NCBI GenBank assembly: GCA_011911785.1
Contig: GCA_011911785.1_4084.1
Strand: one strand, 5' to 3'
Origin: a phage
DNA length: 64,000 bases
Shown here: piece by piece, positions 23,369 through 64,000 of the stretch
How the letters are laid out: each line of letters begins with the position of its first letter
Position numbering within the stretch: position 1 is the stretch's first letter
Notes under the pieces: generated by a model
Database searches by the model: none
What the model saw: only the letters and a program-made list of their open reading frames with translations
What the model was told of the DNA's origin: nothing
Made by a program: the position numbers and the translations under genes

Positions 23369-23563
23369 ATGGAAGACAAATCATTCTATGATCGTATCAT
23401 TGATGACAAAGGTGTATTCGACAAAGTTGTATATGACCTTGACATTATGATTAAAAATGCACCAAATCCACGAGTTCGTACTCAAGCTGAGTTTGCAAAA
23501 ACTTATCTCATTCAAGTACAAGCTATTTGTGATGCATTAAAAAAACACAATAATGGAGCTTGA
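23369..23563 (+). CDS. hypothetical small protein (64 aa)
   Basis: ORF track; GGAG RBS. Confidence 0.4.
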   Translation: MEDKSFYDRIIDDKGVFDKVVYDLDIMIKNAPNPRVRTQAEFAKTYLIQVQAICDALKKHNNGA

Positions 23564-23588
23564 CAGAAATCAATTATTGTTATACAAT
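23560..23588 (+). promoter_or_regulatory. sigma70-like promoter (TTGACA-N17-TACAAT)
   Basis: TTGACA at 23560-65, TACAAT at 23583-88; about 45-nt leader to the IF3-like gene. Confidence 0.55.
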
Positions 23589-23636
23589 CTTTACTGTAAC
23601 CAACACCTATTACAAACTATTTGGAGCTTTTATTAC

Positions 23637-26880
<3,244 letters not shown>

Positions 26881-41016: not shown

Positions 41017-41044
41017 TATCTTAAATTAAATGAGGAATAACCTA

Positions 41045-42172
41045 ATGTCCGAGAAAGAAATCAATCCAAAAAAAGCAACTACCAAAACTTCTAAGCGTAC
41101 TACGACCAAAACCAAAGGTAATACTTTTGATGCGAGTGATATTTTCGACCAACAGTCTAAGACGTTACCAGTACTGAAAGATACAAAAGGTAACACTATG
41201 TCTTTAACTGTTCAGAACATTAACACCATTGGAACAACTGCTGGTGCAGGTGTCGGACGACTGGCTGATGAAATCATGTCAAAAGTGAACGTCACTGATG
41301 ACAATACTGAATTTGGTAAATCAATTACCACAATTTTATCACTAACCCGTGCTGTTGATATTGACAGTCTACAAGATGATAAATCAATTGTAGGTTGGGT
41401 CAAAAAACTCTTTGTCAATGCAAAACAGAAAGTTGGTGATCAGTACAAGAATAGTAAAGAGCAGATTGATGAAATCATGAACACACTCCAGGTTGGTATC
41501 AATCGCCAACATAGTGAATGTGAGTGGTTGGATACTGCTTACAATGAGAATAAAGCCTATCTATTTGAATTACGCGATACGCTGGTTGAATTGGAACAAG
41601 TTACAAAAACTCAAGATGCTAAACTGGAAGAAATGCAAGCGAACCCTGATGTGGATTCTTTCGCAATCCAAGAGCAGAAGATGATTTGTGAAGCATTGTC
41701 TAAACAGGAAGATAAGATTCGCCGTCTTATCATGATGTGTGAGCTTAGTGGCCCTCGTCTGATGAGTATGAAGAAAGTGAATCTAAACACTGTATCTAAA
41801 TTTGAAGATCTGAAATCTGTTGTCATCCCTGCATGGAAATCACAACTAGCAGAACAATTGATTTCTGAACGCCAACGCAAAGATAATGAGTTGGGTAATT
41901 TGATTGATAATGAAACTAACCGTTTACTTGAAGTGAACTCCAAAATGGTAGCAACTAATATGTTAGATGCTGCTAAAGCTAATAACCGTGGTATTGTGGA
42001 TATTAAAACATTGCGTAACGTACACAAAACAATGATCGATAGCATCGAAGCAGTACTGATTGAAGAGAAGAAAGGTAAGGAAGAACGTGAACGTGCTAAA
42101 CATGAAATTGCACAGTTGTCCTACGAACTTGAAGAAACTCTTCGCGAAATTGCTGACAAAGCTAACAAGTAA
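41045..42172 (+). CDS. hypothetical coiled-coil protein (375 aa)
   Basis: ATG 41045 with GAGGAA RBS; largely alpha-helical/coiled-coil composition. Confidence 0.55.
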   Translation: MSEKEINPKKATTKTSKRTTTKTKGNTFDASDIFDQQSKTLPVLKDTKGNTMSLTVQNINTIGTTAGAGVGRLADEIMSKVNVTDDNTEFGKSITTILSLTRAVDIDSLQDDKSIVGWVKKLFVNAKQKVGDQYKNSKEQIDEIMNTLQVGINRQHSECEWLDTAYNENKAYLFELRDTLVELEQVTKTQDAKLEEMQANPDVDSFAIQEQKMICEALSKQEDKIRRLIMMCELSGPRLMSMKKVNLNTVSKFEDLKSVVIPAWKSQLAEQLISERQRKDNELGNLIDNETNRLLEVNSKMVATNMLDAAKANNRGIVDIKTLRNVHKTMIDSIEAVLIEEKKGKEERERAKHEIAQLSYELEETLREIADKANK

Positions 42173-42175
42173 TAG

Positions 42176-42212
42176 TTGACATATAAATGTGCCCATTGTA
42201 TAATGGGCACAT
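42176..42212 (+). promoter_or_regulatory. consensus sigma70 promoter with -10 at centre of a palindrome
   Basis: TTGACA at 42176-81, TATAAT at 42199-204; palindrome ATGTGCCCATT-GTAT-AATGGGCACAT (42187-42212). Confidence 0.6.
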
Positions 42213-42240
42213 ATTTTATTAATTATCTAAGGATAATATG

Positions 42241-42939
42241 ATGGCAGATAAAGTTACACACTATGCAGTTGATATTGAATCTTTCGGAACTCCAGAACGT
42301 AGTGGTTATGATATTACCATTCCAAATTACGCAATTGTTTTAGTTCCAACTAACCCAATGAAAGATATCTCACGTTATGCATATGTTAAACTACCATTCC
42401 AAAAACAAATTGATGCTGGTCTTAAAGTTGATGCAGGTTCAATGAACTTTTGGATGAATATGTGTCAAAATGATCATAAAGGTGCATATGAAGAAGTAGT
42501 TAGTACACTCACGTTGACAGAACCAGAAATTATTTCCGGTAGTCAAAACAATTTGTATAAAACAAAAAATGTACTTGATTTGTGGAATGCACTTCGTTAT
42601 GATCTTAATGGAAATGAGAACAATATTGAAATTTGGGGTAATGGCTGTCACTTCGATTGTAGTATTCTTCAAGCAAACCATCGTAAAATGTTTGGTGTGG
42701 GCGAATTGTGGAAATACAATGCACCACAGAATGCCCGAAGTGTTAAGAATCGCCTAACTGAAGATGAAAAATTTGACATGGATTCCATTGTTGATGTACA
42801 ATTGAAAAAGTTTGTGGAGATGGTTGCTGATCATGGTCTTTATGGTCTAGAACTTCACCACCCATTATTCGATGCAGCACGTGAAGCTATCCAGGTTTCA
42901 TATTGCTTAAATGCAATCAACGAACGCGGAAACTATTAA
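42241..42939 (+). CDS. dexA: DEDDh 3'-5' exonuclease (T4 DexA-like)
   Basis: Exo I VDIESFG, Exo II GCHFDCSIL, Exo III HHPLFDAAREA; about 232 aa, similar to T4 DexA. Confidence 0.7.
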   Translation: MADKVTHYAVDIESFGTPERSGYDITIPNYAIVLVPTNPMKDISRYAYVKLPFQKQIDAGLKVDAGSMNFWMNMCQNDHKGAYEEVVSTLTLTEPEIISGSQNNLYKTKNVLDLWNALRYDLNGNENNIEIWGNGCHFDCSILQANHRKMFGVGELWKYNAPQNARSVKNRLTEDEKFDMDSIVDVQLKKFVEMVADHGLYGLELHHPLFDAAREAIQVSYCLNAINERGNY

Positions 42940-48268: not shown

Positions 48269-48459
48269 ACGTCGAGTTGATTGAAAAAAAGTACTGTACA
48301 AATTGCAATACAGCGTATACAATACAAGGTATGTTAGTTTGTACAACATGTCAGGCAACAGAAACAGCAACATTTTTGGTTGATGACCGATTCAGTGATT
48401 TGAAACAATTCAAAGCTAATCGCAATCTCCGTAACTTTAGTGATATGAATAAGGAATGA
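48265..48459 (+). CDS. small zinc-ribbon protein (64 aa)
   Basis: CTNC...CTTC; ATGA overlap. Confidence 0.5.
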   Translation: MNVELIEKKYCTNCNTAYTIQGMLVCTTCQATETATFLVDDRFSDLKQFKANRNLRNFSDMNKE

Positions 48460-48893
48460 ATATGAATCTTGAACAAGTAATCCGTAACAACCCATTCTTC
48501 GCAGAAAACCCTTCTCGTGTAATTGAAGCGATTAAAGTTGAAGAGCTAATGATTACCGTCAAATATAAAGAAGAAGGTGATGAAATTAGTAGCGTAGTAT
48601 GTGCTCTTCGTGCACCTTTCCGTAAAGAAGCAGCTAAGAAACCAGCATATGTACTATCTATCTGCTTGGGTTGTGTAGTTAAACTGGTTGTTGATGAAAA
48701 TAGTTTCAACATCAAGGTTGCACCAACTAATGATGATGAGAATGTTGATCTCAACTTTGATGGTGGGTTGCCAGAAGAAGAATTCTTCCAACAGTCACTT
48801 GTTGTAGATTTCCGTTCAGTAACTTATGACCATATCAAACTAATCAATGAAATGGTTGATATCGTCGCTAAGTTCGAAGAAGAAACCGCATAA
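48456..48893 (+). CDS. EE-x-FQ-x-SL motif family protein (member 1)
   Basis: C-proximal PEEEFFQQSLVVDF motif shared with 10 other ORFs. Confidence 0.55.
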   Translation: MNMNLEQVIRNNPFFAENPSRVIEAIKVEELMITVKYKEEGDEISSVVCALRAPFRKEAAKKPAYVLSICLGCVVKLVVDENSFNIKVAPTNDDENVDLNFDGGLPEEEFFQQSLVVDFRSVTYDHIKLINEMVDIVAKFEEETA

Positions 48894-49522: not shown

Positions 49523-49633
49523 TTATGCCAGTAATGGCTAACATATTATTATGTTATTTTTCCTCCCTTCTATAATAAAATTAATTTATTATATTTTCCA
49601 TTTCTTATTGTACATTTTATATCTTTTCGTACT

Positions 49634-49656
49634 GCCCCTCCCAGGGGCATTTTTTA
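49634..49656 (+). terminator. intrinsic terminator-like hairpin in intergenic region
   Basis: GCCCCT-CCC-AGGGGC followed by ATTTTTTAT; lies 15 nt upstream of the next ATG. Confidence 0.5.
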
Positions 49657-49670
49657 TATTAGGATAAAGT

Positions 49671-50066
49671 ATGTTAGGTAGTAGAATAGGCAGCATCGTC
49701 ACAATTAAACTTTCTTATTATCTAAATGATTTTTCAAAGATCGATTTATCAAAATATCAGCAATCATCATTCTATTATGAATCATCTGAGCATAAATTTT
49801 CTATCAGCAAAGAACCGGTAAAACTAAAGTATCAGGGGGTTGCAGAAAAGAATGAATTCGTGTATGATTATGGTATGGACAAAATTGTATTCACTGAATA
49901 TACTAAGGGTACAAGACCTACATGGAAAGCGGATTATCATAGAAAATCATTCATCAATATACATAAGTATCTTGACGAAGAGCATTACTTTCAACAGTTG
50001 CTTTTGGAGGATTTACCATTCACTATTGATGATCTAAAAACATTATTTAAGTACTATGCGATATAG
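49671..50066 (+). CDS. EE-x-FQ-x-SL motif family protein (member 2)
   Basis: DEEHYFQQLLLEDL motif; AGGA RBS. Confidence 0.55.
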   Translation: MLGSRIGSIVTIKLSYYLNDFSKIDLSKYQQSSFYYESSEHKFSISKEPVKLKYQGVAEKNEFVYDYGMDKIVFTEYTKGTRPTWKADYHRKSFINIHKYLDEEHYFQQLLLEDLPFTIDDLKTLFKYYAI

Positions 50067-50083
50067 TACTAAAGGAGATACAT

Positions 50084-50518
50084 ATGATTATATCATTCAA
50101 AAAAGTACTAAAATATTTCCAAAATAATAAACTTAAAGATATGAAAGTACGTGTCAATTTCTTTGCTAAAAGTGTGTGGTTTTGTACAGAGGATGAAATT
50201 AAGGTTAATGTAAGATTAACTGATTCATATGAAATAATTCGCCTGTACGCAACCATTGATGGTGTGGATACCAAGATATCATACATTTCAACGAGTGGTA
50301 CGTTGATCATGAGTACGCGAGAAAATGAAACTGATACATTCAATGAAATTAAGATAGAAAACATCCATGAAATCACATCTGAAGAGATACTATTTCAACG
50401 TTCACTTGTTGACAATGTACTAGATTTAACATATGATAATATCATACTAATTCACAAACTGCATGATGAGGCAAAAGCGTTTGCTCTAACCAAATTCGGA
50501 GAATTGGATGATAAGTGA
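50084..50518 (+). CDS. EE-x-FQ-x-SL motif family protein (member 3)
   Basis: SEEILFQRSLVDNV motif; AAGGAG RBS. Confidence 0.55.
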   Translation: MIISFKKVLKYFQNNKLKDMKVRVNFFAKSVWFCTEDEIKVNVRLTDSYEIIRLYATIDGVDTKISYISTSGTLIMSTRENETDTFNEIKIENIHEITSEEILFQRSLVDNVLDLTYDNIILIHKLHDEAKAFALTKFGELDDK

Positions 50519-50933
50519 CCTGTTGAATATTGATATCACTAAACTAAAAATTACCGATTGTGGTATGTGTGTCAATGATAAACGTAAGATTGATTATGCT
50601 ATACTTACTGATGGCAATAAATCTCTTTGGTATGATAAATCTGTAGGAATTCAATTTAGACATAGTTCTAGTACTGAAAAGTATTCAGAGACATTAGATT
50701 ACATAAGTAATGGTAGTATTATCTATGTAAAATATTCAGAATCTGGAAAAATTACAAATACCATTACATTCAATGAAAAGAAGTACTCTGAAGAAGAATT
50801 CTTTATGGTTAGTACTTTGTATGATTTTGGGTGTATCAGGTACTGTGATTATGTTAAAACATTGGACATTTCCAATAAGATCTATTCAATACTTGAGCAA
50901 TATGAAAAGGAGATTGTAGATGACAGTAAGTAA
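50508..50933 (+). CDS. EE-x-FQ-x-SL motif family protein (member 4, FM variant)
   Basis: SEEEFFMVSTLYDF motif; GGAG RBS. Confidence 0.5.
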   Translation: MISDLLNIDITKLKITDCGMCVNDKRKIDYAILTDGNKSLWYDKSVGIQFRHSSSTEKYSETLDYISNGSIIYVKYSESGKITNTITFNEKKYSEEEFFMVSTLYDFGCIRYCDYVKTLDISNKIYSILEQYEKEIVDDSK

Positions 50934-51330
50934 ATGTTACATTATCATTCGTGAAGACTTAGATATGCCAGTTGGGAAGCTTGCTGCTCAGGCGGGTCAT
51001 GCGGTTGATTCTATCTGGTCCACGATTACCGTTGCTGGTACATCAATTCGTGGTTGTAATGCTGTTGGTGAGAACCCAAGAGATGAAGATGAAAAGATCC
51101 TGAACGATTTCAGTACTTGGGTACAGGACGGTCGTCGCAAGATTATCTTAAAGGCTAAATCTGAAGAACAGATGCTTAATCTATTCGATAAAGTGAAAGC
51201 TGAAGGATTCACTGCAACTAAGATTCATGATTATGGATTCAACCATTTTGATGGTCTAACATTAACTGGATTCGTTGTGTTCCCGTGCACTGACGAAGTT
51301 AAAGCATTGAAAAGGGTAAGATTATGGTAG
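50920..51330 (+). CDS. peptidyl-tRNA hydrolase, PTH2 family
   Basis: KCYIIIREDLDMPVGKLAAQAGHAV matches the PTH2 signature (K.V.VVR.DL.M..GK.AAQ..HA); C-terminal block KIILKAKSEEQMLNL...TGFVVFP; AAGGAG RBS. Confidence 0.7.
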   Translation: MTVSKCYIIIREDLDMPVGKLAAQAGHAVDSIWSTITVAGTSIRGCNAVGENPRDEDEKILNDFSTWVQDGRRKIILKAKSEEQMLNLFDKVKAEGFTATKIHDYGFNHFDGLTLTGFVVFPCTDEVKALKRVRLW

Positions 51331-51704
51331 ATGAATTGGATAGAAAAATTGATGCTTTGTATAAATCAATTGAAACCAATGAGGTTACTGTATATTATGG
51401 GAGACAGAGTGTACAACAATCAAATTCATGTTTACGTTTAACCATAACCTTAGATTCAAGAGATAATCCATATACTTGTGTTTTCAAAGAAAGAAACACA
51501 ATTGAATGGATTGGTTGGTATATAGATGACCGTCTTTCATACCTTTATGATTTTGAAAATTATGATGGTTCAGAAGTTTACTTGAATTCAACTGAAGAAG
51601 AATTATTTCAACTATCATTAATTGAAAAACATGTAATGTCATATGACAATTTACAAAAAATCAAGTCAATAATGAATTATGCTCTATCTAAGGTAAAGCA
51701 ATGA
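51324..51704 (+). CDS. EE-x-FQ-x-SL motif family protein (member 5)
   Basis: TEEELFQLSLIEKH motif. Confidence 0.55.
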   Translation: MVDELDRKIDALYKSIETNEVTVYYGRQSVQQSNSCLRLTITLDSRDNPYTCVFKERNTIEWIGWYIDDRLSYLYDFENYDGSEVYLNSTEEELFQLSLIEKHVMSYDNLQKIKSIMNYALSKVKQ

Positions 51705-52141
51705 ACATTAAATTAGTTAAAAAATATATCAGTACTTTTAATAAAATTAAATTTATCAACGATGGTTTGACTGATCCTGAAGAACAAATTAAAAATACCA
51801 CATACGTAGGTCAGAATTGCTTTAAGATTATTATTGAAAATAATGTATTATCATTATCAGTTAATAATCTGGTATATGGTGATCAGATGTATATCGTGCA
51901 CAATGTTAATAACAATAACTTAGAAATTATGCTTCGTGATGATAATGTTATCAAAATATATCAGGTACAAAATGTAAGTGAATGCACTACTGAAGAGGGG
52001 TATTTCCAGGAATCACTGGTTCAAACATTTAATATTGATTTCAAGGATTTAAAATATCTCATGAGTACGCTAACAAAAATGCGTTCAGCTATCTTTAACA
52101 TCTTTTTTATTGATGAACAGCGACAAATGGATGTAAAATGA
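51701..52141 (+). CDS. EE-x-FQ-x-SL motif family protein (member 6)
   Basis: TEEGYFQESLVQTF motif; ATGA overlap. Confidence 0.55.
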   Translation: MNIKLVKKYISTFNKIKFINDGLTDPEEQIKNTTYVGQNCFKIIIENNVLSLSVNNLVYGDQMYIVHNVNNNNLEIMLRDDNVIKIYQVQNVSECTTEEGYFQESLVQTFNIDFKDLKYLMSTLTKMRSAIFNIFFIDEQRQMDVK

Positions 52142-52560
52142 ACCCAAGAGATTGTTTTGATTTGTTAAAGGGAATGCCTATAGATTCACTAGTACCTGAT
52201 AATAGGTTTGAGCACAATCTTGATTTTCATGGTGAAAATTACAATGTATATATAAGCTACAGTGATGATGAGAGTGAAGAACTAACATTTGTGTTCATTT
52301 ATAATGTTTTTGAAGGTGATAAGTTGTTGGATGTTGAAATTGCATCATATACTGTCACAAATCAATACGTTATCGAAGATGAACTTCGCAACAAATTTGA
52401 TATAACACTGTACAGTACTGAAGAAGAGTTGTTTCAGTTAAGTACTATCAGTGATGTGTGCACAACCGTCGAAGAGTTAGCAGACGTTAAGAAAATCATT
52501 GACACTGTGTACAACAAGATATACAATACATTCCATATTGAGAAACAATTGAAAGGGTAA
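52138..52560 (+). CDS. EE-x-FQ-x-SL motif family protein (member 7)
   Basis: TEEELFQLSTISDV motif; ATGA overlap. Confidence 0.55.
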   Translation: MNPRDCFDLLKGMPIDSLVPDNRFEHNLDFHGENYNVYISYSDDESEELTFVFIYNVFEGDKLLDVEIASYTVTNQYVIEDELRNKFDITLYSTEEELFQLSTISDVCTTVEELADVKKIIDTVYNKIYNTFHIEKQLKG

Positions 52561-53153: not shown

Positions 53154-53211
53154 ATTAGGAGATATAATGTTTGTATCAGAGAGAAAGAATGTATAAGGAA
53201 TTATATTTTGC

Positions 53212-53240
53212 TTGACAATGGAGCAATAATATTATACAAT
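53212..53240 (+). promoter_or_regulatory. sigma70-like promoter (TTGACA-N17-TACAAT)
   Basis: TTGACA at 53212-17 and TACAAT at 53235-40; no ORF of 60 aa or more follows before the terminator. Confidence 0.5.
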
Positions 53241-53246
53241 TAATCA

Positions 53247-53428
53247 ATCTTATACAACGAGGAAACTCCAATTGAAATATGTAATACTCCTTATTCCAGT
53301 GGGGTCATTCCGTGAAATTCTACCTACTGATGTACTGGATGGTCTTAAAAAGAGAAATCCACATAAGTTTTAAATAGTATTAAAAAGGACAATACTGGGC
53401 GAATATTCGTCCAGTATTTTATTTTATA
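53247..53428 (+). ncRNA. candidate small non-coding RNA or structured leader (promoter-to-terminator unit without ORF)
   Basis: About 180-nt segment between promoter 53212-53240 and terminator 53391-53428, containing only tiny ORFs. Confidence 0.3.
53391..53428 (+). terminator. intrinsic terminator
   Basis: AATACTGGGCGAAT/ATTCGTCCAGTATT long hairpin followed by TTATTTT. Confidence 0.65.
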
Positions 53429-53439
53429 AAGGATTATAG

Positions 53440-54300
53440 ATGGAACCGATACGTGTACTATCTTTGTTCAATGGGATGAGTGTAGGATATATTGCATTAC
53501 AAAATGCTGGTATAGCAGTTGATAAGTACTACTCATCTGAAATTGACAAATTTGCTATAGCTGAATCCCAGGCTAACTTTCCTGATATCATCCAATTGGG
53601 TGATGTAACCAAATGGAAGGAATGGGATATCGAATGGGACAAGATAGATCTACTGATGGGGGGTTTCCCTTGCCAAGCATGGTCAGTGGCGGGTAAACAA
53701 GGTGGATTAACTGATATCCGTGGTCAACTATTTCTGGTTATGGTTGATATATTCAATCATATTAAAAGTTTAAATCCTAACTTGAAATTCTTATTCGAGA
53801 ATGTTAAGATGAAGGAAGATTTCAAGGAATATATCAATGGTATATTGCAACTAACCCCAGTACTGATAAACTCCCAGCATTACACGCCTCACTTCAGGCA
53901 ACGTTACTACTGGTACAGTACTGATAAGTTATTCATACCACCTGCAATATCCAAAGCCCCAAAGCTTCAAGATATACTTGATGATGGTTGGTACACAGAC
54001 AGAACCGCTTCGTACTGTATTGATGCCAATTACTTCAAGGGTGGAGATCCGAATCAGTACTTCAATAAGTCAAGAAGACAAATCGTTTTCAAAGACCCTG
54101 ATATCAACAGGAACTTCCTGATTGAGAAGGGTAAACGAAATGTGGACTATCGACATTTGACAGTGCAAGAGTGTTGCATTTTACAGGGAGTTGATGTAAA
54201 CTATTTCAAAGTGTCAAGTAACACACAAGCGTACAAAATGCTTGGTAATGGCTGGACAGCACCTGTTATAGAACATTTACTTCGTGATATATTCTTTTAA
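53440..54300 (+). CDS. DNA (cytosine-5)-methyltransferase
   Basis: Motif I LSLFNGMSVG, motif IV catalytic GFPCQAWSVAG, motif VI FLFENVKMK, C-terminal LGNGWTAPV; 286 aa. Confidence 0.85.
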   Translation: MEPIRVLSLFNGMSVGYIALQNAGIAVDKYYSSEIDKFAIAESQANFPDIIQLGDVTKWKEWDIEWDKIDLLMGGFPCQAWSVAGKQGGLTDIRGQLFLVMVDIFNHIKSLNPNLKFLFENVKMKEDFKEYINGILQLTPVLINSQHYTPHFRQRYYWYSTDKLFIPPAISKAPKLQDILDDGWYTDRTASYCIDANYFKGGDPNQYFNKSRRQIVFKDPDINRNFLIEKGKRNVDYRHLTVQECCILQGVDVNYFKVSSNTQAYKMLGNGWTAPVIEHLLRDIFF

Positions 54301-54315
54301 CCATTAGAGGCACAA

Positions 54316-55700
<1,385 letters not shown>

Positions 55701-55704
<4 letters not shown>

Positions 55705-56144
55705 CAGTACTGCACCAATTAAAGAAAGTTAAACATCCGGTAGTTTATAATGATTGGCTACGCCAGAAGGAGATGGGGGACTTTTACTACCCAAAGTCTA
55801 AAGTACTGGCAACGTCAAAAACTATATACCTGAAATATAACGATGAAGATTGTTTGTGTATTCAAATGGGATTCCATCCTAAAGTTGGATTGTTTACATC
55901 AAATCAAACATTTTATAAATTTAGAATTCAAAAAGATACATTTAGTATTCACATTGAAAAGCATGACGTAGAAGATACAATATATCGTGTGGAAAGTGAG
56001 CCTTTGAATCTTGTTGGGATTCCGTACAATAATTTAGAAGAAATGTACTTTCAGCAGTTGACAATACAAGAAGACTTTGGTATGATAGGACTTCAAGAGT
56101 TAGAGATGATTAAACAAATTCGTGATATCTACTTTAAGGAGTAA
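55701..56144 (+). CDS. EE-x-FQ-x-SL motif family protein (member 9)
   Basis: LEEMYFQQLTIQED motif; ATGA overlap; ORF-track start 55689 is a TTG. Confidence 0.55.
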
Positions 56145-60843: not shown

Positions 60844-61413
60844 ATGAACTTTATTAAATTCAACTCATCTGAGTCAGAATCATACTTTAATACAAATAAT
60901 AAATTTAATATTATTCTTAAAGACGGAACGGTTGTTATCGGAGTATCATTGCTTTCATTTGATGGCGAAAAACTCAAAACTGTTTATAAATTCACCAATC
61001 TTGATGGTGATTACTGGGATACGTCAGATGTATCTAAAATTTGCACACATTATGTATTTGAATCTATTGAAGTTGGTGATGGCTGGGCATTGACCTGTAA
61101 TGGTAATAAAGTATTTTCTGGTAACATATTTGGGGTAATTTCCAGTAAAGAAATCGTAGACCATCATCTTCATGTTCTCAATAATAACGCCAACACTTAT
61201 ACACCTGATAATATCAAAATTCACGATATTGTAACATATACTGATTATAATGGTTTCAGACATAAAGCAATTGTAACTGAAGTTAAAAAACCAAAAAATT
61301 ATTTCGACCACGGTTTAATTGAAGTATATATGGTAGGTGGCGAAAAACAATACTTTGATCATTTCACTTATACTGGTTGGGATAGATTCCTAACCGTTGT
61401 TGAGGAATACTAA
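60844..61413 (+). CDS. hypothetical protein (189 aa)
   Basis: ORF track; AAGGAG RBS. Confidence 0.55.
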   Translation: MNFIKFNSSESESYFNTNNKFNIILKDGTVVIGVSLLSFDGEKLKTVYKFTNLDGDYWDTSDVSKICTHYVFESIEVGDGWALTCNGNKVFSGNIFGVISSKEIVDHHLHVLNNNANTYTPDNIKIHDIVTYTDYNGFRHKAIVTEVKKPKNYFDHGLIEVYMVGGEKQYFDHFTYTGWDRFLTVVEEY

Positions 61414-61414
61414 C

Positions 61415-61891
61415 ATGCCAATTCGTGGTATACCAGAACCATTAAGTGAAGTTCTTAAGAATGTCAATGTTGGAACACGAGAAGTTAATCAGCGACGTGG
61501 TAATATATATTACTTTAAAACTACAGGAATGAGTTCTATACAGGTTGTTATTGGCACATCTATTACGGTCACGCGTGTTCTTGATGGTAGTACTGACTTC
61601 GTTGGATACAATGTACTTACTAATAAAGTAACACATACATATAAATGGAGTGGTTATAAAACCATCACATATGAGTTTGACTTAGCTAGAACTGAAGAAG
61701 AACGATTTATGTTGAGTACTATTAATCCAGCAAACTATCCTGACCTTGATGCATTTTTGCTAATTTTAAAATTGTATAATGAAGCAAATGAGAAAGCTAA
61801 AGAGTATGATAGAATCATGTATGAACGTAGAAAAGAACGTTCTCAAAAAAGTTATGATCTGTATGAAAGTTACATTCATAGATCCAAATGA
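61415..61891 (+). CDS. EE-x-FQ-x-SL motif family protein (member 10, FM variant)
   Basis: TEEERFMLSTINPA motif; GAGGAA RBS; ATG 61415. Confidence 0.5.
   Translation: MPIRGIPEPLSEVLKNVNVGTREVNQRRGNIYYFKTTGMSSIQVVIGTSITVTRVLDGSTDFVGYNVLTNKVTHTYKWSGYKTITYEFDLARTEEERFMLSTINPANYPDLDAFLLILKLYNEANEKAKEYDRIMYERRKERSQKSYDLYESYIHRSK

Positions 61892-63464: not shown

Positions 63465-64000
<536 letters not shown>

Follow-up and report, generated by a model that had tools for sequence, protein, structure and literature searches.

A predicted PTH2-type peptidyl-tRNA hydrolase encoded within a fast-evolving paralogue array of Rak2-like jumbo phages

Background

The Escherichia coli host has one essential peptidyl-tRNA hydrolase, Pth1 (E. 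coli Pth), whose substrate and reaction, the release of tRNA from peptidyl-tRNA, are predicted to be shared by the phage protein described here, although the two are unrelated in both fold and sequence. The closest described relatives of the phage protein are the type 2 enzymes (Pth2) of archaea and eukaryotes, whose solved chains include those of M. jannaschii (2ZV3), S. solfataricus (1XTY), P. horikoshii (1WN2) and human Bit1/PTRH2 (1Q7S). In the literature searched, published data on the catalytic residues of Pth2 were found for yeast alone, where the Pth2(D174A) variant is hydrolase-dead (PMC9892010).

Genes of this family have been noted in phages before. The 2013 genome paper on phage RaK2 lists ORF188 as a putative type 2 peptidyl-tRNA hydrolase and also reports an RNA ligase, a polynucleotide kinase and a CCA-adding enzyme in the same genome (PMC3622015), and about 96% of the tRNA arrays of cluster C mycobacteriophages include PTH2-like genes (PMC5966550). 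Iyer, Anantharaman, Krishnan, Burroughs and Aravind proposed in 2021, in the passages of their paper that deal with these genes, that the PTH2 proteins of jumbo phages hydrolyse peptidyl-tRNA when ribosomes are rescued following tRNA cleavage; IF3 and a KTSC-domain protein figure there as companions of PTH2 (PMC7824862). Those passages offer a proposal without experiment, to which the clean absence of the gene from phage 121Q is added here; the literature searched yielded no enzymatic or genetic study of a phage PTH2. The identification analysed below is thus correct but not novel, since the gene is already annotated, its homolog was noted in 2013, and the same role and companions were published in 2021.

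The window, by which is meant the whole 64,000-nucleotide stretch of phage DNA that was analysed, is approximately 99% identical to Escherichia phage A4 (355.5 kb, filed under Asteriusvirus), and its segment 49500..53492 matches the A4 record (ON286972.1) at 98.8% DNA identity. The A4 protein A4_114 (USL83781.1), which is annotated “peptidyl-tRNA hydrolase”, is 100% identical to the PTH2 protein of the window. The window represents a close relative of A4 and not A4 itself, as a neighbouring methyltransferase gene differs between the two by about 1 kb.

Results

The gene and its translation signals

An earlier note, made from the sequence of the window, had assigned an open reading frame to the PTH2 type on the strength of two blocks of its translation. 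Both are read from the plus-strand frame 50920..51330 exactly as claimed: the block KCYIIIREDLDMPVGKLAAQAGHAV, which forms residues 5-29, and the block KIILKAKSEEQMLNL ... TGFVVFPCTDE. The features that bear on the expression of this frame are the following.

49633..49649, plus strand: terminator-like hairpin followed by a T-run, upstream of the PTH2 gene
50907..50912, plus strand: Shine-Dalgarno sequence AAGGAG, 7 nt 5' of the PTH2 ATG, read directly from the sequence
50920..51330, plus strand: PTH2-family gene, a predicted peptidyl-tRNA hydrolase with an ATG start and 136 aa (assigned by Pfam, fold and residues)
53391..53418, plus strand: terminator-like hairpin of 12 pairs followed by a T-run, downstream of the PTH2 gene

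The start codon lies in a 14-nt overlap with the end of the upstream frame, and the stop lies in a 7-nt overlap with the downstream start (ATGGTAG). A good ribosome-binding site combined with overlaps on both sides points to translation within a multi-gene unit, so that the gene is probably translated as one cistron of a tightly packed set, the likely upstream and downstream boundaries of which are the hairpins at 49633..49649 and 53391..53418, respectively. A promoter scan yielded 41 matches, compared to 43.3 expected from shuffled sequences; this is not an enrichment, and no promoter is claimed. The base composition of the gene (GC 0.41, GC3 0.34) resembles that of conserved phage genes, and is unlike that of the AT-rich paralogues which surround it.

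The 240-nt intergenic gap downstream of PTH2 (53197..53439), which is blank in the A4 annotation, contains, apart from the strong downstream hairpin, a near-consensus sigma-70-like site, TTGACA-17-TACAAT, at 53212..53240, and a candidate 33-codon frame with a TTG start at 53272..53373, which was read by eye.

Family and fold assignment

The 136-aa product matches the Pfam PTH2 profile (PF01981) at a level far above chance, with E = 2.5e-18 and 66.8 bits, compared to a gathering score of 23, over residues 5-126 of the protein and positions 2-103 of the 115 in the profile, and this is its sole Pfam match at E <= 10. The profile of the bacterial enzyme, Pth1 (PF01195), produced no Pfam match at E <= 10, and the NCBIfam search returned Pth2 models only. 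A search of PDB sequences with phmmer recovered seven PTH2 sequences, human Bit1 and S. solfataricus 1XTY among them, with M. jannaschii 2ZV3 as the best match (E = 3.4e-13), and in PHROGs the protein falls in phrog_1866, a family without stated function. An assignment to bacterial Pth1 or to any other family can be rejected, because the Pfam and NCBIfam profiles match PTH2 alone.

The assignment is supported by structure prediction. An AlphaFold2 model computed from an alignment of ten clade members (pLDDT 90.2, pTM 0.83) has the alpha/beta architecture that was taken to characterize the PTH2 fold, a four-stranded sheet packed by helices, with strands at residues 5-11, 73-79, 99-104 and 114-123. 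When this model was compared with the PDB using Foldseek, all 14 significant matches were PTH2 chains, the next match having E = 0.5, and the target-normalised TM score was 0.72-0.85 for 13 of the 14, a range that covers the four archaeal and human structures named above; the exception was the NMR model 1rzw, at 0.47. Profile searches and predicted fold therefore match PTH2 only, as the earlier note had maintained in calling the protein PTH2 rather than bacterial Pth, and the unrelated family that it had named as grounds for abandoning the assignment was looked for and did not appear. The product is almost certainly a member of the PTH2 family.

Within the family the protein is distant from the characterized enzymes. 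It fell short of the cut-offs of both NCBIfam models for archaeal Pth2 equivalogs, NF003314 (64.9 bits, cut-off 126) and TIGR00283 (63 bits, cut-off 82), so that functional orthology with archaeal Pth2 cannot be taken for granted, and by these profile scores the protein represents a divergent subfamily and is not an ortholog of the archaeal type. An exhaustive profile search for relatives recovered 2458 representatives at E <= 0.001 and just three representative clusters at E < 1e-29, from which it follows that the close clade is small and the wider family large. The archaeal and eukaryotic enzymes have in common with the phage protein the N-terminal pattern R-x-D-L-x-M-x-x-G-K-x-x-A-Q-x-x-H, W67, K74, the catalytic aspartate and the T-x-T...P block; overall identity to them is nevertheless only 20-28%. 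The phage protein further differs from them in having Asn for Thr four residues past the aspartate, F for G before the conserved proline, a clade-specific C-terminal K-R-x-x-x-W, and about 20 extra residues, relative to the solved Pth2 chains, between the conserved N-terminal block and W67. In the AlphaFold2 model these extra residues lengthen helix 1 (18-48) and helix 2 (55-69), so that a hairpin projects from the fold (pLDDT > 90), its extension covering approximately residues 34-62.

Besides numerous other phages, giant eukaryotic viruses and fowlpox virus are represented in BFVD by PTH2-fold proteins. They are also found in the T4-like phages RB43, Aeromonas 65.2 and Vibrio VH7D, and RaK2 has a second one (BFVD H6X423; 107 aa), which is 13% identical to the PTH2 of the window. 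A second, divergent PTH2-like frame in the window itself was rejected, because an unfiltered search with the family HMM found the known frame only, the next score being E = 0.13. Matches of the C-terminal fragment of PTH2 to IcmE/DotG were dismissed as chance similarity to a repeat protein.

Catalytic and conserved residues

The residues were evaluated by aligning the query to 150 of the relatives from the profile search (151 sequences in all). The twelve near-universal residues R11, D13, K20, Q24, H27, W67, K74, D104, G106, T114, T116 and P122 are all kept in the query and are invariant within the phage clade, in which 34 columns are invariant altogether. The query retains the N-terminal G-K...Q..H block, with K20 found in 150 of the 151 sequences, Q24 in 149 and H27 in every one, and the column of D104 is occupied by D in 149. 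These residues can be related to a solved enzyme through a gapless 61-residue alignment to S. solfataricus 1XTY, which, at an offset of -18, pairs D104 with residue 86 and N108 with residue 90; by the alignment offsets K20 corresponds to residue 18. Lys18, Asp86 and Thr90 of S. solfataricus Pth2 are reportedly the residues studied by Fromant et al. in 2005. D174, the residue whose substitution inactivates the yeast enzyme, appears to occupy the same column as D104, since its distance from the C-terminus, 34 residues in the 208-aa yeast protein, equals that of residue 86 in the 120-aa 1XTY chain.

Position 108, four residues after D104, is Asn in the query, compared to Thr in 129 of the 151 aligned sequences. 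Asn is found at this position in 19 of the 151, mostly from the Rak2-like clade, and P0003, a member of the same clade which is 67% identical to the query, has Thr. The threonine of the D-x-G-x-T motif is typical of PTH2 but does not strictly define it, and the query lacks it. Because Asn and Thr interchange over short evolutionary distances, N108 is read as a tolerated variant of the subfamily, an interpretation of the alignment which argues against inactivation. The loss of the catalytic residues, which according to the earlier note would overturn its assignment, was looked for as well: the catalytic aspartate (D104) and the conserved lysine (K20) are both present, and the sole departure among the conserved PTH2 residues is the change of Thr to Asn at position 108, a position that is variable in the clade.

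The flanking paralogue array

The gene had also been described as embedded in an array of paralogues, which the analysis bears out. Nine related small frames were found in the window, four of them directly upstream of PTH2 and three directly downstream. They are linked by BLASTP and iterated HMM searches and have in common the C-terminal motif (S/T)EEE-x-F-x-Q-x-S-L.

48456..48893, plus strand: paralogue-family member, upstream of PTH2
49671..50066, 50084..50518 and 50508..50933, plus strand: three paralogue-family members, upstream of PTH2
51324..51704, 51701..52141 and 52138..52560, plus strand: three paralogue-family members, downstream of PTH2
55689..56144 and 61397..61891: two further paralogue-family members

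The proteins of this family, 125-165 aa in length, are multi-copy and are spread along this arm of Rak2-like jumbo phages: at least 10 members are found in 14.6 kb of phage 121Q, members flank PTH2 in RaK2, GAP32 and Munch as well, and more of them occur farther on in the A4 genome. Pfam returned no match for its members, which belong to separate PHROGs, all without known function; an AlphaFold2 prediction on the nine-member alignment had low confidence (pLDDT 64, pTM 0.56).

Relatives, synteny and presence or absence

Homologs of PTH2 were found by tblastn in 40 phage records, nearly all of them from Rak2-like jumbo phages and many annotated as peptidyl-tRNA hydrolase. Identities were 59% for RaK2, K64-1 and Muenster, approximately 40-44% for GAP32, CBB, Serratia BF and Erwinia SNUABM, and 38.5% for EJP2, with weaker matches in Xanthomonas jumbo phages and a mycobacterial prophage.

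RaK2 belongs to another genus (Alcyoneusvirus) and infects another host, yet its Pth2, ORF188 (59% identity over 98% of the length), occupies the same syntenic place, between the same paralogue neighbours and upstream of a C5 methyltransferase gene. A position 2-3 kb upstream of the C5-cytosine methyltransferase gene is common to RaK2, GAP32 and EJP2. The paralogues which flank ORF188 are only 26-34% identical to those of the window, from which it follows that PTH2 is much better conserved than its neighbours. These comparisons indicate a conserved gene inside a rapidly diverging paralogue array, on which purifying selection acts and whose place in the genome is retained.

Down to the C5-cytosine methyltransferase gene, this locus and those of RaK2 and 121Q are collinear gene for gene. 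Comparison of the window with 121Q gives the six paralogues surrounding the PTH2 site an identity of 25-44%, against 70-95% for genes immediately beyond them. In 121Q the homologs of the frames that flank PTH2 (gp85 and gp86) lie 1 nt apart, and both the PTH2 HMM and tblastn came back empty over the 14.6-kb locus, so that exactly this gene is missing. Among Escherichia phages, tblastn matches to PTH2 were found in A4 and EJP2 only, while 31 Escherichia records have the flanking DNA; the gene was not found by tblastn (E <= 1e-5) in most other Escherichia Asteriusviruses, 121Q being the one checked directly. The clean absence of PTH2 from 121Q, at a locus that is otherwise collinear, makes it an accessory gene, and this absence, together with that from most Escherichia Asteriusviruses by tblastn, implies that growth on E. 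coli does not in general depend on it.

The distribution suggests that the ancestor of Rak2-like phages probably already had PTH2 and that the 121Q lineage lost it. A recent import from a RaK2-like phage was considered and rejected, because the flanking paralogues are as far from those of RaK2 as from those of 121Q, and because the GC3 of PTH2 is within the range of other conserved genes; ancestral presence followed by loss in 121Q is the simpler account.

Two further observations concern neighbouring genes and annotations. The C5-cytosine DNA methyltransferase gene of the window (53440..54300; 861 nt, 286 aa, Pfam DNA_methylase) is 87% identical to 121Q gp91, whereas its A4 counterpart A4_120 (ON286972.1 292647..294545) is annotated at 1899 nt. 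The DNA match to A4 ends about 50 nt into this gene, after which the offset shifts by 1038 nt, so that two near-identical phages have different alleles of the methyltransferase or an insertion. In Salmonella phage Munch the true PTH2 is CPT_Munch_390; the protein annotated there as “peptidyl-tRNA hydrolase”, CPT_Munch_385 (279 aa, L007 2270..3109), is an SPFH/Band 7 protein (PF01145, 100 bits) and is apparently misannotated.

Translation-related context

The earlier note had drawn on an IF3 homolog and a tRNA cluster in relating PTH2 to phage manipulation of translation. The following features of the window bear on that context.

23553..24140, plus strand: phage IF3 homolog (Pfam IF3_N 59.4 bits and IF3_C 50.7 bits, both above cut-off; A4_73)
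24750..24992, plus strand: KTSC-domain protein (Pfam KTSC 35.5 bits, cut-off 25; A4_75)
63777..63866, plus strand: tRNA-Ser(UGA), the only tRNA in the window

The IF3 homolog is real but lies 27 kb from PTH2. The cluster is represented in the window by tRNA-Ser(UGA) alone, and the rest of what is a loose set lies, in A4, past the point at which the window ends: A4 has five tRNAs spread over about 3 kb, beginning about 13 kb downstream of PTH2, of which tRNA-Ser(UGA) is the first. In GAP32, EJP2 and Munch tRNA genes lie 0.4-3.2 kb from PTH2. Both of the companions named in the passages on PTH2 in Iyer et al. 2021, IF3 and KTSC, are confirmed in the window by Pfam.

Elsewhere in the window, the frame next to IF3 (24155..24700) resembles ClpS weakly (20.3 bits, compared to a cut-off of 23) and is called a “protease adapter” in A4, and two proteins are encoded within 41030..42939, one TelA-like (131 bits) and the other an Rv2179c-like 3'-5' exoribonuclease (35 bits).

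Discussion

The reading that best accommodates these results is that the frame encodes an active PTH2-type peptidyl-tRNA hydrolase, belonging to a subfamily of Rak2-like jumbo phages, which recycles tRNA during infection and whose gene is ancestral and accessory; this reading as a whole is probable. Its chemical component, activity on peptidyl-tRNA or N-acyl-aminoacyl-tRNA, is predicted from the conserved residues and can be held with good confidence. The enzyme would hydrolyse the ester bond of peptidyl-tRNAs that have fallen from ribosomes or are stuck on them, other N-blocked aminoacyl-tRNAs would probably also be substrates, and the freed tRNA would return to the pool, adding to the capacity of the host's Pth1. 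The need for such a supplement might arise when phage translation is very heavy, perturbed and possibly error-prone. The reading does not explain what is gained from a second enzyme when the Pth1 of the host is already essential, and it must also accommodate the missed equivalog cut-offs, the Asn at position 108 in place of the usual Thr, and the absence of the gene from 121Q. That general tRNA recycling, rather than a specific counter-defence, is the role for which the gene has been selected is a judgement towards which the balance of the evidence tips only slightly. The suggestion of the earlier note that the gene serves translation rescue, possibly against tRNA-targeting defences, is plausible and agrees with the passages on PTH2 in Iyer et al. 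2021 (PMC7824862).

The principal alternative, which is possible but rather unlikely, is that the protein is a specific counter-defence enzyme that undoes the damage done to charged tRNA by toxins or defence systems. It could do so by deacylating the N-acetyl-aminoacyl-tRNA produced by GNAT toxins of the TacT, AtaT and ItaT type, a proposal which draws support from the finding that a bacterial Pth reverses acetylation by TacT (PMC9241777), or, as the relevant passages of Iyer et al. have it, by clearing peptidyl-tRNA or its fragments from ribosomes stalled after attack by an anticodon nuclease. In the latter variant the RNA-repair enzymes reported in RaK2 are suggestive, and those passages group jumbo-phage PTH2 with genes for RNA repair and ribosome rescue (PMC7824862), but PTH2 acts on the ester bond and a cleaved tRNA is not repaired by it. 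The distribution of the gene can be argued either way: presence in A4, EJP2 and RaK2 combined with clean absence from 121Q, in a hypervariable array, is typical of accessory genes that mediate interactions with the host, while the retention of one syntenic position across several genera and hosts fits a housekeeping helper equally well. The searched literature contains neither a defence system that is countered by a PTH2 nor an experiment on the question. The natural pair formed by A4, in which the gene is present, and 121Q, in which it is absent, would make this alternative directly testable. On this reading, the clade-specific hairpin extension and Asn108 might tune the choice of substrate or access to the ribosome.

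That the PTH2 fold has lost or changed its hydrolase chemistry, leaving a tRNA- or ribosome-binding factor or an enzyme for some other ester substrate by way of the Thr108Asn change and the extended hairpin, is very improbable, for while the substitution, the insertion of about 20 residues in helices 1 and 2, the missed equivalog cut-offs and the second role of yeast Pth2 that is independent of hydrolase activity (PMC9892010) can be cited in its favour, all of the other near-universal residues, the catalytic aspartate included, are kept and clade-invariant, Asn recurs at position 108 in other sequences of the alignment and Thr in P0003, and Asn, like Thr, could still serve as hydrogen-bond donor and acceptor.

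Conclusions

The additions made here to the published account are modest: the catalytic aspartate and the conserved lysine are intact, and the Thr to Asn change is a variant of the clade; PTH2 appears as a conserved gene within a fast-evolving paralogue array; and the collinear 121Q locus without the gene offers a ready-made genetic comparison with A4. If the enzyme is active, then a bacterial virus uses the archaeal and eukaryotic solution to a task for which its host uses an unrelated enzyme, and this would bear on how large phages sustain translation and, following Iyer et al. 2021, on ideas that jumbo-phage genes are of ancient origin.
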